The position numbers and the translations under genes are program-made. The notes under the pieces were generated by a model. It did not search any database. It was not told where the DNA came from and saw nothing but the letters and a program-made list of their open reading frames with translations. From NCBI RefSeq assembly GCF_003018235.1, contig NZ_CP027439.1: a stretch of 64,000 bases of DNA, one strand, 5' to 3'. Of this stretch, positions 6,786 through 46,808 are shown piece after piece. The DNA comes from Escherichia coli (GTDB lineage: Bacteria; Pseudomonadota; Gammaproteobacteria; Enterobacterales; Enterobacteriaceae). How positions within the stretch are numbered: the stretch's first letter is position 1; every line of letters starts with the position of its first letter.

Positions 6786-6929
6786 TGCGGCAACAATCAC
6801 ACAGATTACCCGTAAACAGCCTGAATGAGCGGGTTATTTTCAGGAAAAGTGAGTGTGGTCAGCGTGCAGGGATATGGGCTATGATGTGCCCGGCGCTTGA
6901 GGCTTTCTGCCTCATGACGTGAAGGTGGT

Positions 6930-7010
6930 TTGTTGCCGTGTTGTGTGGCAGAAAGAAGATAGCCCCGTAGTAAGTTAATTTTCATTAACCACCACGAGGC
7001 ATCCCTATGT
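6930..7010 (-). ncRNA. sok: Sok/FlmB-like antisense RNA of the hok-type killer locus (approximate position)
   Basis: Placed from the hok/sok paradigm: antisense to the leader and mok start upstream of hok. No promoter or ends were mapped. Confidence 0.3.
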
Positions 7011-7219
7011 CTAGTCCACATCAGGATAGCCTCTTACCGCGCTTTGCGCAAGGAGAAGAAGGCCATGAAACTACCACGAAGTTCCCTTGTCTGGTGTGTG
7101 TTGATCGTGTGTCTCACACTGTTGATATTCACTTATCTGACACGAAAATCGCTGTGCGAGATTCGTTACAGAGACGGACACAGGGAGGTGGCGGCTTTCA
7201 TGGCTTACGAATCCGGTAA
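7007..7219 (+). CDS. mok: Mok/FlmC-like overlapping reading frame (modulation of killing)
   Basis: 70-aa ORF overlapping hok in a different frame, as in hok/sok and flm loci. Confidence 0.6.
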
Positions 7220-10539: not shown

Positions 10540-10923
10540 ATGGCTAAGGTGAACCTGTATATCAGCAATGATGCTTATGAAAAAATAAATGCGATTATTG
10601 AGAAGCGTCGACAGGAAGGGGCAAGGGAAAAAGATATCAGTTTTTCAGCAACAGCTTCAATGCTTCTTGAACTGGGGCTTCGTGTACATGAGGCTCAGAT
10701 GGAGCGTAAAGAGTCTGCATTTAATCAGACTGAGTTTAATAAATTGCTTCTTGAATGCGTTGTAAAAACACAATCATCAGTAGCGAAAATTTTGGGTATT
10801 GAGTCTCTCAGTCCTCATGTCTCCGGAAATCCAAAGTTTGAATATGCCAATATGGTTGAAGATATCAGGGAGAAGGTATCATCTGAGATGGAGCGATTTT
10901 TTCCAAAAAATGATGATGAATAA
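10540..10923 (+). CDS. traM: Relaxosome accessory protein TraM
   Basis: 127 aa, MAKVNLYISNDAYEKINAIIEKRRQEGAREKDISFSATASMLLELGLRV. Confidence 0.93.
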   Translation: MAKVNLYISNDAYEKINAIIEKRRQEGAREKDISFSATASMLLELGLRVHEAQMERKESAFNQTEFNKLLLECVVKTQSSVAKILGIESLSPHVSGNPKFEYANMVEDIREKVSSEMERFFPKNDDE

Positions 10924-11039
10924 AAGAAATTTGACTTCGTTCAAATATCAGAGTTTTTATGATTTAAAAGGGTGACAGTACGAAAGATAATTAGTATATT
11001 AATTACGTGGTTAATGCCACGTTAAAATTTGAATTTGAA

Positions 11040-11115
11040 AATCGCCGATGCAGGGAGTTCACGTCTCCCTGCATCGACTGTCCATAGAATCCTTTGTGAG
11101 GAGGTTCCTATGTAT
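11040..11115 (-). ncRNA. finP: FinP-like antisense RNA opposite the traJ leader (approximate)
   Basis: Stem-loop GATGCAGGGAG...CTCCCTGCATC (11047..11075) plus a second stem spanning the traJ RBS and start; position follows the FinOP paradigm. Ends not mapped. Confidence 0.4.
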
Positions 11116-11799
11116 CCGATGGATCGTATTCAACAAAAACATGCTCGTCAAATAGATCTGCTGGAAAATCTGACGGCAGTTATTCAGGATTATCCAAATC
11201 CAGCCTGTATCAGGGACGAAACTGGAAAATTTATTTTTTGCAATACGCTGTTTCATGAGTCATTTCTTACACAAGATCAAAGTGCTGAAAAATGGCTTCT
11301 GTCGCAGAGAGATTTTTGTGAATTGATCTCTGTCACAGAGATGGAAGCATACAGGAATGAGCATACGCATCTTAATCTTGTAGAGGATGTTTTTATTCAG
11401 AACAGATTCTGGACAATATCTATTCAGTCATTTCTTAATGGACACAGAAATATCATTCTGTGGCAATTTTATGATGCTGCTCATGTTCGTCATAAAGACA
11501 GTTATAATCAAAAAACGATTGTCAGTGATGATATCAGAAATATAATCAGAAGAATGAGTGATGATTCTTCTGTATCATCATATGTAAATGATGTCTTTTA
11601 CTTATATAGCACCGGAATCAGTCATAATGCTATAGCAAGAATATTAAACATATCCATCTCCACATCAAAGAAACACGCGTCTCTGATATGCGACTACTTC
11701 TCTGTTTCTAATAAAGATGAGTTAATCATCTTACTCTACAATAAAAAGTTTATTCATTATTTGTACGAGAAGGCTATGTGTATCATAAATACGCGTTAA
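11110..11799 (+). CDS. traJ: Transfer operon activator TraJ
   Basis: 229 aa from ATG at 11110 with RBS GAGGAGG; lies between traM and traY. Confidence 0.8.
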   Translation: MYPMDRIQQKHARQIDLLENLTAVIQDYPNPACIRDETGKFIFCNTLFHESFLTQDQSAEKWLLSQRDFCELISVTEMEAYRNEHTHLNLVEDVFIQNRFWTISIQSFLNGHRNIILWQFYDAAHVRHKDSYNQKTIVSDDIRNIIRRMSDDSSVSSYVNDVFYLYSTGISHNAIARILNISISTSKKHASLICDYFSVSNKDELIILLYNKKFIHYLYEKAMCIINTR

Positions 11800-11891
11800 T
11801 AAAGTGTTAATAAAATATAGACTTTCCGTCTATTTACCTTTTCTGATTATTCTGCAAACATAAGTAGTAACCAGAAGATAAACAGCGGGAG

Positions 11892-12293
11892 GTGTTATTG
11901 AAAAGATTTGGTACACGTTCTGCAACAGGTAAGATGGTAAAACTAAAATTACCTGTAGATGTGGAAAGTCTATTAATTGAGGCAAGTAACAGAAGCGGAA
12001 GAAGTCGATCGTTTGAGGCAGTAATAAGACTTAAAGATCATCTTCACCGCTATCCAAAGTTTAACAGGGCAGGGAATATCTATGGTAAGTCGCTGGTTAA
12101 GTATCTGACAATGCGTCTGGATGATGAAACTAACCAGCTACTTATTGCAGCCAAAAATCGTAGTGGATGGTGTAAAACAGATGAGGCTGCAGACAGAGTT
12201 ATTGATCATTTGATCAAGTTTCCTGATTTTTATAACTCGGAGATATTCAGGGAGGCAGATAAAGAGGAAGATATAACATTTAATACACTCTAG
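11892..12293 (+). CDS. traY: Relaxosome accessory protein TraY (tandem ribbon-helix-helix)
   Basis: LKRFGTRSATGKMVKLKLPVDVESLLIEASNRSGRSRSFEAVIRLKDHL and a second RHH repeat; the true start is probably the TTG at 11898 (GGAGG RBS). Confidence 0.8.
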   Translation: MLLKRFGTRSATGKMVKLKLPVDVESLLIEASNRSGRSRSFEAVIRLKDHLHRYPKFNRAGNIYGKSLVKYLTMRLDDETNQLLIAAKNRSGWCKTDEAADRVIDHLIKFPDFYNSEIFREADKEEDITFNTL

Positions 12294-12325: not shown

Positions 12326-12685
12326 ATGAATGCTGTTTTAAGTGTTCAGGGTGCTTCTGCGCCCGTCAAAAAGAAGTCGTTTTTTTCTAAATTCACTCGT
12401 CTGAATATGCTTCGCCTGGCTCGCGCTGTGATCCCGGCTGCTGTTCTGATGATGTTCTTCCCGCAACTGGCAATGGCAGCACAGGGCCAGGACCTGATGG
12501 CAAGCGGTAACACCACGGTTAAGGCGACCTTCGGTAAGGACTCCAGTGTTGTTAAATGGGTCGTTCTGGCTGAAGTTCTGGTCGGTGCGGTCATGTACAT
12601 GATGACCAAAAACGTCAAGTTCCTGGCCGGTTTTGCCATCATCTCTGTATTTATTGCTGTGGGTATGGCCGTCGTTGGCCTCTGA
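12326..12685 (+). CDS. traA: Propilin TraA
   Basis: 119 aa with a long leader and hydrophobic mature pilin segment ([19 protein letters not shown]). Confidence 0.92.
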
Positions 12686-28417: not shown

Positions 28418-28709
28418 GCAGGTGGTGTTACTCATTGCCGGAATATCCGGCATCGCGACGGGAATAATCGTCAGCCTGAATATCCCCTTTATCCATCAGG
28501 GGCTTTTTTATCCCGCCAGCCCTGTAGAAATTGTCGTTTCGCTGTGCCTTACCTTTTCTGTTTCTGTTGTGTTTTTTGTGGGGGCAATTGTGGGATGGAT
28601 TTCGGTGTCTGAAATATATTACAGCCGCAGGACTGGACGGAAATATCGGGATATTCCTGCTGAAATGTCGTATGCGCCGGGAGAACACATTAAGGGAGGG
28701 CAAGAATGA
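28407..28709 (+). CDS. trbJ: TrbJ
   Basis: GTG start at 28407 with RBS GGAGGG; membrane protein VRNKQVVLLIAGISG. Confidence 0.6.
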   Translation: MRNKQVVLLIAGISGIATGIIVSLNIPFIHQGLFYPASPVEIVVSLCLTFSVSVVFFVGAIVGWISVSEIYYSRRTGRKYRDIPAEMSYAPGEHIKGGQE

Positions 28710-30082
28710 TGCCACGCATTAAACCTCTTCTGGTTCTTTGTGCTGCTTTACTGACGGTCACACCCGCAGCGTCAGCGGATGTGAACAGCGACATGAATCA
28801 GTTCTTTAACAAGCTGGGCTTCGCCTCCAATACCACACAGCCGGGCGTCTGGCAGGGGCAGGCCGCCGGTTATGCTTACGGTGGCTCCCTGTATGCCCGT
28901 ACTCAGGTCAAAAATGTTCAGCTGATTTCCATGACGCTGCCGGATATCAATGCCGGATGTGGCGGCATCGACGCCTATCTCGGCTCGTTCAGTTTTATTA
29001 ATGGCGAGCAGCTGCAGCGTTTTGTTAAGCAGATTATGAGCAATGCTGCCGGTTACTTTTTTGACCTTGCCCTGCAGACAACGGTGCCGGAAATCAAAAC
29101 CGCAAAAGACTTCCTGCAGAAAATGGCAAGCGACATTAACAGTATGAACCTCAGTTCCTGCCAGGCGGCACAGGGGATTATCGGCGGGCTCTTCCCCCGG
29201 ACGCAGGTGTCCCAGCAGAAAGTCTGTCAGGACATTGCCGGTGAGAGCAATATTTTTGCTGACTGGGCGGCTTCCCGGCAGGGATGTACCGTTGGCGGTA
29301 AATCTGACAGCGTCAGGGATAAAGCCAGCGACAAGGATAAGGAGCGGGTGACCAAAAACATTAACATCATGTGGAATGCGCTTTCCAAAAACAGAATGTT
29401 TGACGGCAACAAAGAGCTGAAAGAGTTTGTGATGACGCTGACCGGCTCACTGGTGTTTGGTCCCAACGGCGAAATCACACCGCTGTCAGCCAGAACCACT
29501 GACCGCTCAATTATCCGGGCCATGATGGAAGGCGGCACAGCAAAAATTTATCACTGCAACGATTCTGATAAATGCCTGAAAGTGGTGGCAGACACACCGG
29601 TGACCATCAGCCGGGATAATGCACTGAAGTCTCAGATTACTAAACTTCTGGCCAGCATTCAGAACAAGGCGGTCAGTGACACGCCTCTGGATGACAAGGA
29701 AAAAGGCTTTATTTCCAGTACCACCATCCCCGTCTTCAAATACCTGGTTGACCCGCAGATGCTCGGTGTTTCCAACAGTATGATTTACCAGCTGACGGAC
29801 TATATCGGTTACGACATCCTGCTGCAGTACATTCAGGAGCTGATACAGCAGGCCCGGGCGATGGTGGCCACAGGAAATTATGACGAAGCAGTTATCGAAC
29901 ATATTAACGACAACATGAATGATGCCACCCGGCAGATTGCGGCGTTTCAGTCACAGGTGCAGGTACAGCAGGATGCGCTGCTGGTTGTCGATCGTCAGAT
30001 GAGCTACATGCGTCAGCAGCTTTCCGCCCGCATGCTCAGTCGTTACCAGAACAACTATCACTTCGGAGGGAGCACGCTGTGA
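28706..30082 (+). CDS. traH: TraH
   Basis: 458 aa with signal peptide. Confidence 0.92.
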   Translation: MMPRIKPLLVLCAALLTVTPAASADVNSDMNQFFNKLGFASNTTQPGVWQGQAAGYAYGGSLYARTQVKNVQLISMTLPDINAGCGGIDAYLGSFSFINGEQLQRFVKQIMSNAAGYFFDLALQTTVPEIKTAKDFLQKMASDINSMNLSSCQAAQGIIGGLFPRTQVSQQKVCQDIAGESNIFADWAASRQGCTVGGKSDSVRDKASDKDKERVTKNINIMWNALSKNRMFDGNKELKEFVMTLTGSLVFGPNGEITPLSARTTDRSIIRAMMEGGTAKIYHCNDSDKCLKVVADTPVTISRDNALKSQITKLLASIQNKAVSDTPLDDKEKGFISSTTIPVFKYLVDPQMLGVSNSMIYQLTDYIGYDILLQYIQELIQQARAMVATGNYDEAVIEHINDNMNDATRQIAAFQSQVQVQQDALLVVDRQMSYMRQQLSARMLSRYQNNYHFGGSTL

Positions 30083-32904
30083 ATGAAGTTTATGTGATTG
30101 CCGGTGGTGAGTGGTTGCGGAATAACCTGAACGCCATTGCCGCTTTTATGGGAACCAGGACGTGGGATTCCATTGAAAAAATTGCGCTCACATTGTCTGT
30201 TCTCGCGGTGGCCGTGATGTGGGTACAGCGGCACAACGTGATGGATTTGCTGGGCTGGGTGGCCGTGTTTGTGCTTATCAGCCTGCTGGTTAATGTCCGC
30301 ACATCGGTGCAGATTATTGATAACAGTGACCTGGTCAAAGTTCACCGGGTGGATAATGTGCCGGTCGGACTGGCGATGCCACTTTCACTGACGACCCGTA
30401 TCGGGCATGCAATGGTGGCCAGTTACGAGATGATCTTCACGCAACCGGACAGTGTCACCTACAGCAAAACGGGGATGCTGTTTGGCGCAGAACTGGTATC
30501 AAAAAGCACCGACTTTTTGTCCCGGAATCCGGAAATCGCCAATCTTTTCCAGGATTATGTGCAGAACTGCGTGATGGGGGATATTTACCTGAACCACAAA
30601 TATACGCTGGAGGAGCTGATGGCCTCCGCTGATCCCTACACGCTGATTTTTTCCCGCCCCAGCCCGCTGCGGGGCGTTTATGACAGCAATAATAATTTCG
30701 TAACCTGTAAGGACGCTTCGGTTTCGCTGAAAGACAAGCTGAATCTGGACACACAGAGTGGCGGAAAAACCTGGCATTATTATGCCCAGCAGCTATTTGG
30801 CGGACGCCCTGATCCTAACCTGCTGTTCAGTACGCTGATTGGCGACAGTTACAGTTACTTCTATGGCTCAAGTAAATCAGCCAGCCAGATCATCCGCCAG
30901 AATGTCACCATCAATGCGCTGAAGGAGGGGATCACCAGTTATGCCGCACGTAATGGTGATTCGGCCAGCCTGGTGAATCTGGCCACCACATCATCGATGG
31001 AGAAGCAACGTCTGGCACATGTCTCCATCGGTCATGTGGCGATGCGGACACTGCCCATGACGCAGACCATCCTGACGGGGATCGCCATCGGTATTTTCCC
31101 GCTCCTGGTACTGGCGGCTGTCTTCAACAAACTGACGCTGTCCGTCCTGAAAGGCTATGTGTTTGCCCTGATGTGGTTGCAGTCATGGCCAATGTTGTAC
31201 GCCATTCTGAACAGCGCCATGACATTTTATGCAAAGCAGAATGGTGCACCGGTGGTGCTCTCGGAAATTTCACAGATACAGCTGAAATACTCCGATCTGG
31301 CTTCCACTGCCGGGTATCTTTCCATGATGATCCCGCCATTATCCTGGATGATGGTCAGGGGGCTCGGGGCAGGATTTTCCAGTGTGTACAGCCATTTCGC
31401 TTCCTCTGCTATCAGCCCGACCGCCAGTGCAGCAGGCAGTGTGGTTGACGGTAATTACTCCTACGGCAACATGCAGACGGAGAACGTTAACGGCTTCAGC
31501 TGGAGCACCAACAGCACCACGTCGTTTGGTCAGATGATGTACCAGACCGGCAGTGGCGCAACCGCCACACAGACCCGTGACGGTAATATGGTGATGGATG
31601 CAAGCGGAGCGATGTCCCGGTTACCGGTCGGCATCAATGCAACGCGTCAGATTGCGGCGGCACAACAGGAAATGGCCCGGGAAGCATCGAACAGAGCAGA
31701 AAGTGCCCTGCATGGGTTCAGCAGCAGTATTGCCAGTGCCTGGAACACGCTCAGTCAGTTTGGTTCTAACCGGGGGAGCAGTGATTCTGTCACCGGTGGT
31801 GCTGACAGCACGATGAGTGCTCAGGACTCCATGATGGCCAGCCGTATGCGCAGTGCAGTGGAAAGCTATGCGAAGGCGCATAATATCAGTAATGAGCAGG
31901 CGACTCAGGAACTGGCATCAACAAGTACCAGGCTATCTGGTGGAATGTATGCTGATGCTCATGCTGAATGGGGGGTTAAACCTAAAATTCTTGGTGTTGG
32001 TGGTGGGGTAGGCATCAGAGGTGGATTTAAGGGGAGCCTGGATGCAACGGATGATGACTCACATTCAGCAAGTAGTGGCAGCAGGGCTACCCATGATGCT
32101 CGCCATGATATCGATGCTAAAGCCAGTAAGGACTTTAAAGAGGCCAGCGATTACTTTACCAGTCGCAAGGTCAGTGAATCCGGCAGCCATACGGACAATA
32201 ATGCCGATTCCCGTGTGGACCAGCTGTCTGCAGCCCTGAACTCAGCAAAACAGAGTTACGACCAGTACACGACGAATATGACCCGCAGCCATGAATATGC
32301 TGAAATGGCATCCCGTACTGAAAGCATGAGTGGGCAGATGAGTGAAGACCTGTCGCAACAGTTTGCACAGTATGTGATGAAACACGCGCCGCAGGATGCC
32401 GAAGCTATTCTGACAAACACCAGTTCACCGGAGATTGCAGAACGCCGTCGGGCGATGGCATGGTCTTTTGTTCAGGAACAGGTGCAGCCTGGTGTTGATA
32501 ATGCCTGGCGTGAATCCCGTGGGGATATTGGTAAAGGAATGGAGAGCGTACCTTCGGGTGGTGGCAGCCAGGATATTATTGCTGACCATCAGGGGCATCA
32601 GGCCATTATTGATCAAAGAACGCAGGACAGTAATATCCGTAATGATGTAAAACATCAGGTTGATAATATGGTCACAGAATATAAAGGGAATATCGGAGAT
32701 ACTCAGAATAGTATTCATGGCGAAGAAAATATTGTAGACAGACAATATTCAGAGTTAAAAAATAATCACAAACAGGAAGAAATTCAACAAAACAACAGAT
32801 ATAATGAAGAAAATAAACGACAGAAATTAATGCCAACACCGTCTGAAGATGCGTTAAAACAGATGGTGGATGATAAGAAAGAACGATTGAAGGGGCCATT
32901 ATGA
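30079..32904 (+). CDS. traG: TraG (mating-pair stabilisation / entry exclusion)
   Basis: 941 aa, polytopic N-terminal domain. Confidence 0.92.
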   Translation: MNEVYVIAGGEWLRNNLNAIAAFMGTRTWDSIEKIALTLSVLAVAVMWVQRHNVMDLLGWVAVFVLISLLVNVRTSVQIIDNSDLVKVHRVDNVPVGLAMPLSLTTRIGHAMVASYEMIFTQPDSVTYSKTGMLFGAELVSKSTDFLSRNPEIANLFQDYVQNCVMGDIYLNHKYTLEELMASADPYTLIFSRPSPLRGVYDSNNNFVTCKDASVSLKDKLNLDTQSGGKTWHYYAQQLFGGRPDPNLLFSTLIGDSYSYFYGSSKSASQIIRQNVTINALKEGITSYAARNGDSASLVNLATTSSMEKQRLAHVSIGHVAMRTLPMTQTILTGIAIGIFPLLVLAAVFNKLTLSVLKGYVFALMWLQSWPMLYAILNSAMTFYAKQNGAPVVLSEISQIQLKYSDLASTAGYLSMMIPPLSWMMVRGLGAGFSSVYSHFASSAISPTASAAGSVVDGNYSYGNMQTENVNGFSWSTNSTTSFGQMMYQTGSGATATQTRDGNMVMDASGAMSRLPVGINATRQIAAAQQEMAREASNRAESALHGFSSSIASAWNTLSQFGSNRGSSDSVTGGADSTMSAQDSMMASRMRSAVESYAKAHNISNEQATQELASTSTRLSGGMYADAHAEWGVKPKILGVGGGVGIRGGFKGSLDATDDDSHSASSGSRATHDARHDIDAKASKDFKEASDYFTSRKVSESGSHTDNNADSRVDQLSAALNSAKQSYDQYTTNMTRSHEYAEMASRTESMSGQMSEDLSQQFAQYVMKHAPQDAEAILTNTSSPEIAERRRAMAWSFVQEQVQPGVDNAWRESRGDIGKGMESVPSGGGSQDIIADHQGHQAIIDQRTQDSNIRNDVKHQVDNMVTEYKGNIGDTQNSIHGEENIVDRQYSELKNNHKQEEIQQNNRYNEENKRQKLMPTPSEDALKQMVDDKKERLKGPL

Positions 32905-36570: not shown

Positions 36571-39500
36571 TGATGAGTATCGCGCAGGTCAGATCGGCCG
36601 GAAGTGCCGGTAACTATTATACCGACAAGGATAATTACTATGTGCTGGGCAGCATGGGAGAACGCTGGGCCGGCAGGGGGGCTGAACAGCTGGGACTGCA
36701 GGGCAGTGTCGATAAGGATGTTTTTACCCGTCTTCTGGAGGGAAGGCTGCCGGACGGAGCGGATCTAAGCCGCATGCAGGATGGCAGTAACAGGCATCGT
36801 CCCGGCTACGACCTGACCTTCTCCGCCCCCAAAAGTGTCTCCATGATGGCCATGTTAGGTGGCGATAAGCGCCTGATTGATGCACATAACCAGGCCGTGG
36901 ACTTTGCTGTTCGTCAGGTGGAGGCGCTGGCCTCCACACGGGTGATGACGGACGGACAGTCAGAAACGGTGCTGACCGGTAATCTGGTGATGGCACTGTT
37001 TAACCACGACACCAGTCGCGATCAGGAACCACAGTTACACACGCATGCGGTGGTGGCTAATGTCACGCAGCATAACGGCGAATGGAAGACACTGAGCAGT
37101 GACAAAGTGGGGAAAACGGGGTTCATTGAGAATGTGTACGCTAATCAGATTGCCTTTGGCAGGCTCTACCGGGAAAAACTGAAAGAGCAGGTTGAGGCGC
37201 TGGGCTATGAAACCGAAGTGGTGGGTAAGCACGGTATGTGGGAGATGCCGGGCGTACCGGTGGAGGCCTTTTCCGGACGCTCACAGGCAATCCGGGAGGC
37301 CGTCGGGGAAGATGCCTCGCTGAAATCCCGGGATGTGGCGGCACTGGATACGCGAAAATCCAAACAGCACGTCGATCCTGAAGTCAGAATGGCTGAATGG
37401 ATGCAGACGCTGAAGGAAACCGGGTTCGACATCCGGGCATATCGTGACGCGGCGGATCAGCGTGCGGAGACCCGCACGCAGGCGCCCGGGCCAGCTTCAC
37501 AGGACGGGCCGGATGTGCAGCAGGCGGTGACACAGGCGATTGCCGGATTAAGTGAACGAAAAGTGCAGTTCACGTATACGGATGTGCTGGCCAGGACAGT
37601 CGGCATACTGCCGCCGGAAAATGGTGTGATTGAACGGGCACGCGCCGGTATCGATGAGGCCATCAGCCGTGAGCAGCTTATCCCCCTCGATCGTGAGAAG
37701 GGGCTGTTCACGTCCGGGATTCATGTGCTCGATGAGCTGTCAGTCCGGGCGCTCAGTCGTGACATCATGAAACAGAACCGGGTGACCGTACATCCGGAGA
37801 AAAGTGTCCCCCGGACGGCCGGTTACAGCGATGCCGTCAGTGTTCTGGCACAGGATCGCCCGTCGCTGGCCATTGTGTCCGGGCAGGGCGGTGCTGCCGG
37901 GCAGCGTGAGCGGGTGGCTGAACTGGTCATGATGGCCCGGGAGCAGGGGCGGGAGGTGCAGATTATCGCTGCTGACCGTCGTTCGCAGATGAACCTGAAG
38001 CAGGATGAACGGCTGTCCGGTGAGCTGATAACCGGACGTCGTCAGCTGCAGGAGGGCATGACCTTCACACCGGGCAGTACCGTTATCGTTGACCAGGGCG
38101 AAAAACTCTCCCTGAAAGAGACGTTAACCCTGCTGGACGGTGCCGCACGTCATAACGTACAGGTCCTGATAACCGACAGCGGGCAGCGAACCGGTACAGG
38201 CAGTGCGCTGATGGCCATGAAGGATGCCGGGGTGAACACATATCGCTGGCAGGGGGGAGAACAGCGACCGGCCACCATCATCAGTGAACCGGACCGTAAT
38301 GTCCGCTATGCCCGGCTGGCAGGAGATTTTGCGGCCAGCGTGAAAGCCGGAGAAGAGAGCGTGGCACAGGTCAGCGGGGTACGGGAACAGGCCATACTGA
38401 CACAGGCCATTCGCAGTGAGCTGAAAACACAGGGCGTGCTCGGACACCCGGAGGTAACCATGACCGCCCTCTCACCGGTCTGGCTGGACAGCCGGAGCCG
38501 TTATCTGCGGGATATGTACCGTCCGGGGATGGTGATGGATCAGTGGAACCCGGAGACACGCAGTCATGACCGCTATGTTATCGACCGGGTGACGGCGCAG
38601 AGTCACAGCCTGACCCTGCGGGATGCGCAGGGTGAAACGCAGGTGGTGCGTATTTCCTCCCTGGACAGCAGCTGGTCGCTGTTCCGGCCGGAAAAAATGC
38701 CGGTGGCAGACGGCGAGCGTCTGAGGGTGACAGGGAAAATTCCCGGACTCCGCGTCTCCGGCGGTGACCGCCTGCAGGTGGCATCCGTCAGTGAAGATGC
38801 GATGACGGTTGTTGTGCCGGGGCGGGCTGAACCGGCCACCCTGCCTGTGGCTGATTCACCGTTCACGGCACTGAAGCTGGAGAATGGCTGGGTGGAAACG
38901 CCCGGGTATTCCGTCAGCGACAGTGCGACGGTTTTTGCCTCCGTCACACAGATGGCAATGGACAACGCCACCCTGAACGGTCTGGCCCGCAGCGGTCGTG
39001 ATGTCCGGCTGTATTCCTCTCTGGATGAAACCCGTACTGCGGAAAAACTTGCCCGCCATCCCTCCTTTACGGTGGTTTCTGAGCAGATAAAGACGCGGGC
39101 CGGTGAGACACCGCTGGAAACTGCTATCAGTCTGCAGAAAGCCGGGCTTCACACGCCGGCACAGCAGGCCATTCATCTGGCCCTTCCTGTGCTGGAAAGT
39201 AAAAACCTGGCCTTCAGCATGGTGGACCTGCTGACAGAGGCGAAGTCGTTTGCTGCAGAAGGAACCAGTTTTATCGACCTGGGAGGGGAAATCAATGCGC
39301 AGATAAAACGCGGTGATTTACTGTATGTGGATGTGGCAAAAGGCTATGGCACAGGCCTGCTGGTTTCCCGTGCGTCGTATGAGGCAGAAAAGAGCATTCT
39401 TCGCCATATTCTCGAAGGTAAGGAGGCGGTCACGCCGCTGATGGAGAGAGTACCTGGCGAACTCATGGAGAAACTGACATCAGGACAGCGCGCCGCCACC

Positions 39501-42660: not shown

Positions 42661-43221
42661 ATGACAGAGCAGAAGCGACCGGTACTGACACTGAAGCGGA
42701 AAACAGAAGGGGGGACGCCTGTCCGCAGCCGGAAAACCATCATCAATGTCACCACGCCACCAAAATGGAAGGTGAAAAAGCAGAAGCTGGCCGAGAAAGC
42801 AGCCCGGGAAGCAGAGCTGGCGGCCAAAAAAGCGCAGGCCAGACAAGCGCTGTCCATTTATCTGAACCTGCCCACGCTGGATGAGGCTGTGAACACCCTG
42901 AAGCCCTGGTGGCCGGGATTATTTGACGGTGACACGCCCCGGCTTCTGGCCTGCGGTATCCGGGACGTGTTACTGGAAGACGTGGCGCAGCGGAATATCC
43001 CGCTCTCGCATAAAAAACTGCGCAGGGCGCTGAAGGCCATCACCCGTTCAGAAAGCTATCTTGGTGCCATGAAAGCCGGTGCCTGCCGGTATGACACGGA
43101 AGGGTATGTGACGGAGCATATTTCTCAGGAGGAGGAAGCGTATGCGGCAGCGCGTCTGGATAAAATCCGCCGCCAGAACCGGATAAAGGCAGAACTTCAG
43201 GCCGTGCTTGATGAGAAATAA
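42661..43221 (+). CDS. finO: RNA chaperone FinO
   Basis: 186 aa from [17 protein letters not shown], matching FinO. Confidence 0.9.
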
Positions 43222-43356: not shown

Positions 43357-43569
43357 ATGAATGGATTCAGAAACAGTTCACGGAACGGTCAGGTCTGGCG
43401 TTACCAGCGTGCCGGCGGGCGGGCCGTTATTCTGGAGGTCAGTGGACGCTGGATGGAAGCGGCAGAAGCATGGCGACGGGCTGCCTGCATAGCTCCCCGG
43501 ACAGACTGGCAACAGTTTGCCCGGAAAAGGGCTGAACACTGCCACCGGCGCTGCCGGGGAAGGGTGTAA
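43357..43569 (+). CDS. Hypothetical small protein
   Basis: 70-aa ORF preceded by GGGAGGAG RBS; no recognisable motifs. Confidence 0.35.
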   Translation: MNGFRNSSRNGQVWRYQRAGGRAVILEVSGRWMEAAEAWRRAACIAPRTDWQQFARKRAEHCHRRCRGRV

Positions 43570-43814
43570 CGAAAAAAGCAGCCTTCATTACACCAGAAGT
43601 CAGAAGGCTGAAAGGAGTTTATGAGATTTGCTTTTTTTAATATCCGGTCGGGCAGTATGACCGGACAGTTCTGAGTAGCACAGAGTTTTTTCCGTATTAA
43701 GTCGTGATTTTATATTTTGTGATTTATTTCACAAAATAAGGTGTTATTCATTGTGTGCTGCAATATTCAGGATGCCTGAAATACAGGTGCCATTTATCTG
43801 ATATGGAGAATAAC

Positions 43815-45764: not shown

Positions 45765-45855
45765 CAGGAGCCAGAAAAGTGAAAACCCCGATAATCTTCT
45801 TTAACTTTGGCGAGTGAGAAAGATTATCGGGGCTAACAAGAAACTGCATAGAAGC
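45765..45855 (-). ncRNA. copA: CopA (inc) antisense RNA of the repA1 leader (approximate ends)
   Basis: Long imperfect hairpin 45786..45832 (ccccgataatctt...aagattatcgggg) with a loop containing GCGCCAAAG on the minus strand, matching the CopA/CopT stem-loop II arrangement between copB and tap. Confidence 0.5.
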
Positions 45856-45883
45856 TGTTGCTCTATGCGGGGAGTATAGTTAT

Positions 45884-45958
45884 ATGCCCGGAAAAGTTCA
45901 AGACTTCTTTCTGTGCTCACTCCTTCTGTGCAACATAAGTGCAGGATGGTGTGACTGA
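45884..45958 (+). CDS. tap: Leader peptide Tap (RepA6) translationally coupled to repA1
   Basis: 24-aa [27 protein letters not shown] ending at TGA 45956..45958, overlapping the repA1 GTG start at 45951. Confidence 0.7.
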
Positions 45959-46808
45959 TCTTCAACAAACGTATTACCGCCAGGTAAAGAACCCGAATCC
46001 GGTGTTCACTCCCCGTGAAGGTGCCGGAACGCTGAAGTTCTGCGAAAAACTGATGGAAAAGGCGGTGGGCTTCACCTCCCGTTTTGATTTCGCCATTCAT
46101 GTGGCGCATGCCCGTTCCCGTGGTCTGCGTCGGCGCATGCCACCGGTGCTGCGTCGACGGGCTATTGATGCGCTGCTGCAGGGGCTGTGTTTCCACTATG
46201 ACCCGCTGGCCAACCGCGTCCAGTGTTCCATCACCACACTGGCCATTGAGTGCGGACTGGCGACAGAGTCCGGTGCAGGAAAACTCTCCATCACCCGTGC
46301 CACCCGGGCCCTGACGTTCCTGTCAGAGCTGGGACTGATTACCTACCAGACGGAATATGACCCGCTTATCGGGTGCTACATTCCGACCGACATCACGTTC
46401 ACACCGGCTCTGTTTGCTGCCCTTGATGTGTCTGAGGATGCAGTGGCAGCTGCGCGCCGCAGTCGTGTTGAATGGGAAAACAAACAGCGCAAAAAGCAGG
46501 GGCTGGATACCCTGGGTATGGATGAGCTGATAGCGAAAGCCTGGCGTTTTGTGCGTGAGCGTTTCCGCAGTTACCAGACAGAGCTTAAGTCCCGTGGAAT
46601 AAAACGTGCCCGTGCGCGTCGTGATGCGAACAGGGAACGTCAGGATATCGTCACCCTGGTGAAACGGCAGCTGACGCGTGAAATCTCGGAAGGGCGCTTT
46701 ACTGCTAATGGTGAGACGGTAAAACGCGAAGTGGAGCGTCGTGTGAAGGAGCGCATGATTCTGTCACGTAACCGCAATTACAGCCGGCTGGCCACAGCTT
46801 CCCCCTGA
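45951..46808 (+). CDS. repA1: Replication initiator RepA1 (IncFII/RepFIIA)
   Basis: 285 aa from the GTG start: [89 protein letters not shown]. Confidence 0.93.

Follow-up and report, generated by a model that had tools for sequence, protein, structure and literature searches.

[quoted passage not shown] The pairing of the antisense RNA with its target is thought to start at the loops, and it is there that pairing rates are set and not by the stability of the duplex (discussion in PMC10470590); in a related plasmid, traJ is derepressed when single bases of the SLIIc loop are changed (PMC10470590). Plasmids of this group as a rule have an intact finO and F is the exception: among 256 F-like plasmids that were surveyed, F was the single group A member not to be finO positive (PMC5102898), and the interruption of the F gene by IS3, which an earlier note on this DNA had brought up, agrees with the literature (PMC5102898; PMC7690428). 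The presence of finO is thus not a distinguishing feature.

The DNA analysed here, referred to as the window, is a stretch of 64,000 nucleotides from Escherichia coli (contig NZ_CP027439.1). We consider it likely, judging from the sequence, that it belongs to an F-like plasmid (MOBF12 group A) and carries a canonical FinOP circuit for fertility inhibition that appears functional and in which loop II of FinP is flipped. Both RNA elements were recognised by Rfam with scores far above the gathering thresholds (Table 1), the traJ 5' untranslated region directly 5' of the traJ open reading frame and FinP antisense to the traJ leader, overlapping the Shine-Dalgarno sequence and the ATG. The 121-nt leader fold is made up of SLIII, SLIIc and SLIc (z = -4.84), and both the Shine-Dalgarno sequence and the start codon at 11110 are found within SLIc. 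With both folds significant, this confirms the FinP-type stem-loops that the earlier note had described in the traJ leader, as well as its statement that the hairpins cover the ribosome-binding site and start of traJ. That note had placed the feature at 11029-11799, of which the end is correct and the start is not, as 11029 is merely the first TTG of a mechanically called open reading frame and the coding sequence begins at 11110.

In its minimum free energy structure (-37.1 kcal/mol, z = -6.75, with 0 of 200 shuffled sequences being as stable), FinP consists of a 4-nt 5' end, SLI, the spacer GACA, SLII and the 3' tail GAUUUU, and it therefore has the two stem-loops, the 4-nt spacer and the single-stranded 3' tail ending in U that characterise this RNA. 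The stem of SLII is 14 bp long in the fold and closes the loop ACGUGAA, and its inner 12 bp constitute a perfect palindrome in the DNA at 11046-11076.

Table 1. Features of the traJ leader, finP, traJ and finO in the window
Feature	Position	Strand	Basis and remarks
Promoter-like site of traJ (PJ, candidate), GTGACA-17 nt-TATATT	10972-11000	+	Consensus scan, 10/12 matches
traJ 5' UTR (RF00243)	11005-11115	+	Rfam, 124.4 bits (gathering threshold 50)
traJ untranslated leader, 105 nt, three hairpins	11005-11109	+	Rfam and fold
SLIII of traJ leader	11005-11022	+	Leader fold
SLIIc of traJ leader	11046-11076	+	Leader fold
7-nt loop of SLIIc/FinP SLII, allele-defining	11058-11064	+	Alignment with F plasmid NC_002483
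SLIc of traJ leader, running into the coding sequence	11083-11112	+	Leader fold
Shine-Dalgarno sequence AGGAGG of traJ	11099-11104	+	Sequence and fold; inside SLIc, covered by FinP SLI
FinP (RF00107)	11116-11038	-	Rfam, 96.2 bits (threshold 45); model 1-76/76, full-length
finP gene, 79 nt	11038-11116	-	Rfam RF00107 and fold
Promoter-like site of finP (candidate), TTGACG-17 nt-TACGAT	11123-11151	-	Consensus scan, 9/12 matches
traJ coding sequence, 229 aa, same length as in F; product activates the promoter of the tra operon	11110-11799	+	Open reading frame and comparison with F
traJ-traY intergenic region	11800-11891	+	Gene order traM-traJ-traY-traA as in F
finO, 186 aa, RNA chaperone stabilising FinP and speeding FinP-traJ pairing	42661-43221	+	Uninterrupted open reading frame

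The traJ and finP promoters are candidates identified as consensus matches. A function of the upstream site as PJ is suggested by the identical sequence in F and would place the start of the transcript near 11005. The finP promoter-like site lies inside the first traJ codons, in a stretch identical to F. Two GATC (Dam) sites flank or overlap its hexamers, at 11122-11125 (overlapping the -10 hexamer) and at 11155-11158, and Dam methylation has been reported to regulate finP transcription on the Salmonella virulence plasmid (Camacho et al. 2005, as cited in PMC7690428).

The earlier note had also raised the question of which traJ/finP allele is present, and the alignment of the finP loops that it proposed gives a clear answer: TraJ and stem-loop I are of the F type, and the loop of stem-loop II is inverted relative to F. 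The alignment with F covered window positions 10924-11180, which run from the traM end into the first codons of traJ, and apart from three point differences upstream of finP and the loop the two sequences are identical, leaving the 7-nt loop as the only change within the finP gene. On the sense strand, the loop reads TTCACGT in the window, which is the exact reverse complement (7/7) of ACGTGAA in F, and FinP loop II is consequently ACGUGAA in the window and UUCACGU in F, so that the loops are swapped between the two RNAs. SLI/SLIc and loop I are identical to those of F. Loop II is not that of F, and since it differs at 7 of 7 positions, we did not file the window allele as the F finP allele; that the allele is simply identical to F is ruled out by the alignment. 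In terms of sequence, the allele is a rare, flipped partner of the classical F loop II. The parts of FinP that FinO recognises (the lower stem, the spacer and the 3' tail) are unchanged relative to F. In F it is loop II of FinP that bears a UUCA motif of the YUNR type, and in the window it is the traJ loop; the motif is absent from some sister alleles and is taken here as a side observation and not as a mechanism.

Taken as a whole, the window and F have the same SLIII, the same two stems, the same SLI/SLIc with its loop and the same spacer, tail, ribosome-binding site, finP promoter region and traX-finO junction, and they differ in the inverted loop II, the three upstream point differences, the disruption of finO by IS3 in F (PMC5102898) and the length of the pilin gene (119 codons compared to 121 in F). 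The FinOP system of R100/R6-5 has the same architecture, with a FinO that is 95.7% identical and has the contact residues kept, but R100 differs in its TraJ (24% identity), its 6-nt loop II (AGCGAC), 1 nt of loop I and an extra open reading frame between traX and finO.

The two protein-coding genes of the circuit are both full length. TraJ differs from F TraJ at 2 of 229 residues (V105I and Y216H), and the exact protein is found, under the name TraJ, on at least 1000 public contigs. The uninterrupted 186-codon reading frame supports the full-length finO reported in the earlier note, and its product has both the FinO_N (PF12602, 132 bits) and the ProQ/FinO (PF04352, 93 bits) domains and matches the crystallised R6-5 FinO (PDB 1DVO) with E = 7e-94. 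Compared to R100 FinO there are eight substitutions, none of them at a mapped RNA-contact residue, and all the contact residues listed in PMC3105414 (W36, K46, K81, R121, K125, R165 and K176) are kept. The exact FinO protein occurs on 476 public contigs and is hence a common natural variant. With a finP that has a promoter-like site, hairpins, spacer and tail, a full-length traJ and a finO whose contact residues are kept, the circuit does appear to be intact, in line with the earlier note. finO starts 54 nt after traX, the junction between the two genes is identical to that of F, and the 861-bp open reading frame that R100 has between traX and finO is absent from the window junction. In work of van Biesen and Frost from 1992, a finO without the upstream open reading frame is said to go with weaker repression, and differences in the level of finO mRNA reportedly explain the weaker repression of some F-like plasmids. 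Since no R100-type reading frame precedes finO here, repression might be modest.

The remainder of the transfer region has the standard F-like gene order, with a transglycosylase gene (X.19-like), traM (10540-10923), traJ, traY (11892-12293) and traA, and by analogy the PY promoter, the target of TraJ, should lie between traJ and traY. All genes from traM to traX are full length compared to the R100 proteins with the exception of trbF, which appears to be missing or replaced; merely the last 29 codons of an R100-type trbF align, at 28633-28719 between trbJ and traH. traN and a traS allele are intact open reading frames. As the tra genes are full length and FinOP is intact, the plasmid appears to be transfer-proficient with an intact brake. 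The pilin gene traA (12326-12685) encodes 119 aa, equal to the R100 length, compared to 121 aa in F, and the window thereby combines F-type traM, traJ and traY with a non-F pilin N-terminus (mature N-terminal region). The best PLSDB plasmids for window positions 1-25000 are 94-96% identical in 7-13 pieces, and by this comparison the backbone of that part is a mosaic without a close counterpart in PLSDB. Rfam also recognised the antisense RNAs AS-pc02 (43466-43651, minus strand, 178 bits) just 3' of finO, AS-traI (39419-39495, minus strand, 105 bits) and AS-traG (30798-30883, minus strand, 65 bits), the sok antitoxin RNA of a hok/sok module (6891-7067, plus strand, 89 bits) and CopA, the IncFII replication-control antisense RNA (45777-45866, minus strand, 90 bits), which adjoins repA (45951-46808).

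Going by the biology of F, R1 and R100, the traJ mRNA would start near 11005, and the 79-nt antisense FinP would be transcribed from its own promoter in the first traJ codons, from 11116 to 11038. FinO would bind the base of SLII and the 3' tail, shield FinP from RNase E and speed up pairing, which would begin with loop-loop contacts between SLI and SLIc and between SLII and SLIIc. The final FinP-traJ duplex would bury the ribosome-binding site and the AUG, and with little TraJ being made the tra operon would be mostly off. The predicted outcome is a low, repressed level of transfer with transient bursts, as in nearly all natural F-like plasmids, although the repression may be moderate if the context of finO matters. 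An intact FinOP is useful to know of for annotation and for judging the risk of spread, but it is a known system in its usual state and not new.

The flipped loop has consequences for specificity that can be derived from the arrangement of the genes. One stretch of DNA encodes both FinP and traJ, and the FinP of the window therefore stays fully complementary to its own traJ, while FinP of the F allele would meet an identical and not a complementary loop, so that cross-repression is predicted to be weakened. We thus predict normal self-repression together with weakened cross-repression between this plasmid and plasmids with the F allele. In calculations on loop-only duplexes, the cognate pair reached -7.2 kcal/mol (6 bp), compared to -3.1 kcal/mol for window FinP with F traJ and -2.3 kcal/mol for F FinP with window traJ (4 bp each, from the shared ACGU palindrome), and window FinP with the traJ loop TTCACGC of a sister allele gave -6.6 kcal/mol (5 bp). 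A change of specificity by the flip is argued for by the hypervariability of loop II among near-identical leaders, the derepression seen in SLIIc loop mutants and the presumed initiation of pairing at the loops. Since SLI is identical to F and the 4-nt ACGU palindrome is shared, partial cross-repression by F-type FinP may nevertheless persist.

The flip most plausibly arose by template switching during replication, across the perfect palindrome of 12 bp. Such a switch at a 12-bp inverted repeat with a 7-nt spacer would replace the spacer by its reverse complement. In rRNA hairpins, the inversion of loops by template switching has been documented and found to be statistically enriched (PMC8794818), and inversion of the spacer of an inverted repeat has been described in yeast (PMC8604942); in those cases, too, a perfect inverted repeat surrounds a short spacer that is reverse-complemented with its length preserved. 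In contrast to the rRNA and yeast cases, the loop encoded by the finP hairpin is one through which a sense and an antisense RNA recognise each other, and a flip therefore swaps the loops of the regulator and its target and may reset specificity in trans. An inverton of the recombinase type was also considered and set aside as implausible, a repeat of 12 bp with 7 bp between its arms being much smaller than such a system would be expected to use.

Loop flips are not confined to the F-type hairpin. A metagenome scan with conserved stems and a free loop returned at least 120 contigs, and 13 loop sequences were present among those listed, or 14 allele variants if those with C and with T in the 3' stem arm are kept apart. 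Among the contigs listed, GTCTGAA and TTCAGAC (16 and 11 contigs), which share the same R1-type SLI, are exact reverse complements, as are CAGCCA and TGGCTG (15 and 1), and CTTGTCC and GGACTAG (14 and 1) are reverse complements but for one base. With the window and pEntH10407 loops added, the alleles listed number ten of 7 nt and four of 6 nt; chance would be expected to yield about 0.004 exact reverse-complement pairs among them (45 x 4^-7 + 6 x 4^-6), and three were observed. Both orientations of GTCTGAA/TTCAGAC occur on two flank backgrounds that are about 139 of 692 positions (about 20%) apart, and each flipped contig has 0-2 flank differences from an unflipped one. In PLSDB, about 290 records gave an opposite-strand match to the GTCTGAA query over the core only and appear to carry the flipped R1-type loop, and one of them, the finished plasmid NZ_HG739084, has TTCAGAC in the traJ sense orientation; as finished plasmids show flips too, an effect of metagenome assembly is excluded. 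The sequences point to at least three and possibly five independent inversions in this hairpin family, and new finP alleles seem to have arisen repeatedly by loop inversion. We found no description of finP loop flipping in the searchable literature, which does not extend to the classical allele papers (Finlay et al. 1986; Frost et al. 1994), so the novelty of this finding is held loosely and the flipped relation may have been noted long ago.

The frequency of the two orientations could be determined because the hairpin core is palindromic: a 61-nt query meets the opposite orientation over the 31-nt palindromic core alone and on the other strand, which tells the orientations apart. This logic was checked on NZ_CP148747, where the F query matched partially and the window query in full at 100%. 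The exact window loop is present in about 6-7 PLSDB plasmid records, compared to about 310-320 with the F loop, and in 4 records of complete E. coli genomes, compared to 299. A further 12 E. coli records differ at 1 of the 61 query bases, and the one that was read, pET6.2-IncFII, has TTCACGC. Carriers of the window allele are plasmids of E. albertii and E. coli plasmids of cat, pig and human origin, and pPS2C_64kb has the same finP allele on a different backbone (for example, with a pilin gene of F length). Five loop II alleles were found on the F-type SLI, namely ACGTGAA (F), ACGACAA (pEntH10407), TTCACGT (window), TTCACGC and the common TTCTCTC. Position 11034 is T in all alleles starting with TTC and A in F and pEntH10407, and the flanks of the TTC alleles show 3-5 differences per 692 nt from the window type, compared to at least 7 for F. 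The sister alleles TTCACGC (pET6.2-IncFII) and TTCTCTC (pHH12_P2 and many others) have the same leader as the window, including the T at 11034, and differ from it at one and three loop positions, respectively. The window allele is the only TTC form that exactly mirrors F, and for this reason it appears to connect the two series. The linked single-nucleotide differences suggest, as the simplest history of the F-type lineage, one older flip followed by point changes.

The perfect palindrome could conceivably have misled sequencing or assembly, in which case the true allele would be that of F. Outside the loop the 31-bp hairpin core is self-reverse-complementary, which in principle could lead to errors of orientation, but any k-mer of at least 20 nt that spans flank, stem and loop should fix the orientation. 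Independent finished plasmids of E. albertii, and of E. coli from the three hosts, moreover share this orientation, the flanking T at 11034 that is linked to it is common to the TTCACGC and TTCTCTC alleles and not found in F, and the single-base derivative TTCACGC is present in 12 complete genomes (with the loop read in pET6.2-IncFII). These independent plasmids, the linked difference and the derivative allele lead us to reject an artefact, and we give this explanation almost no credence. It is also rather improbable that the genes are intact and the plasmid is nevertheless derepressed or weakly repressed, either through low expression of finO or because FinO with its eight substitutions is weaker. 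Such an effect would fit the position of finO 54 nt after traX as in F, without the 861-bp open reading frame of R100, and the influence that finO mRNA levels reportedly have in F-like plasmids. The eight substitutions, however, avoid all mapped RNA-contact residues, and this exact FinO, being present on 476 contigs, is a common natural variant. The retention of finO by all group A plasmids but F (PMC5102898) further suggests that the gene is under selection.

A more serious objection, though still an unlikely one in our view, is that the orientation of the loop has no functional consequence, in that SLI-SLIc and the long stems suffice and the plasmid forms one cross-repressing group with F. 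SLI and its loop are identical to F, a 4-bp ACGU contact is left between the non-cognate loops, and at full length the non-cognate duplex retains a very high stability (-145.6 compared to -163.0 kcal/mol). It is loop-loop initiation and not duplex stability that sets antisense pairing rates, however, and single-base changes in the SLIIc loop are enough to derepress traJ (PMC10470590). The hypervariability of loop II, with five alleles on the F-type SLI, is also the pattern expected of a specificity determinant.

We thus favour a FinOP circuit that is intact and in which the flip would matter for specificity. Beyond this plasmid, we put forward as a tentative proposal, which we would not yet call probable, that a flip across the 12-bp palindrome is a recurrent, one-step reset of FinP/traJ recognition that leaves self-repression in place and lets the plasmid escape trans-repression by co-resident relatives with the unflipped allele, and that is perhaps reversible in populations at a measurable frequency. 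The flip changes every loop position at once and moves UUCA from FinP to the traJ mRNA. F and the window plasmid, which in the pairing region differ only by the orientation of one 7-nt loop, constitute a natural test pair for the share of loop II in FinP specificity and for whether it matters which of the two RNAs bears the U-turn-type motif. The findings suggest that template-switch inversion, besides point mutation, may diversify the specificity of antisense RNAs and that the inversion of a loop may let related plasmids coexist without silencing each other's transfer.
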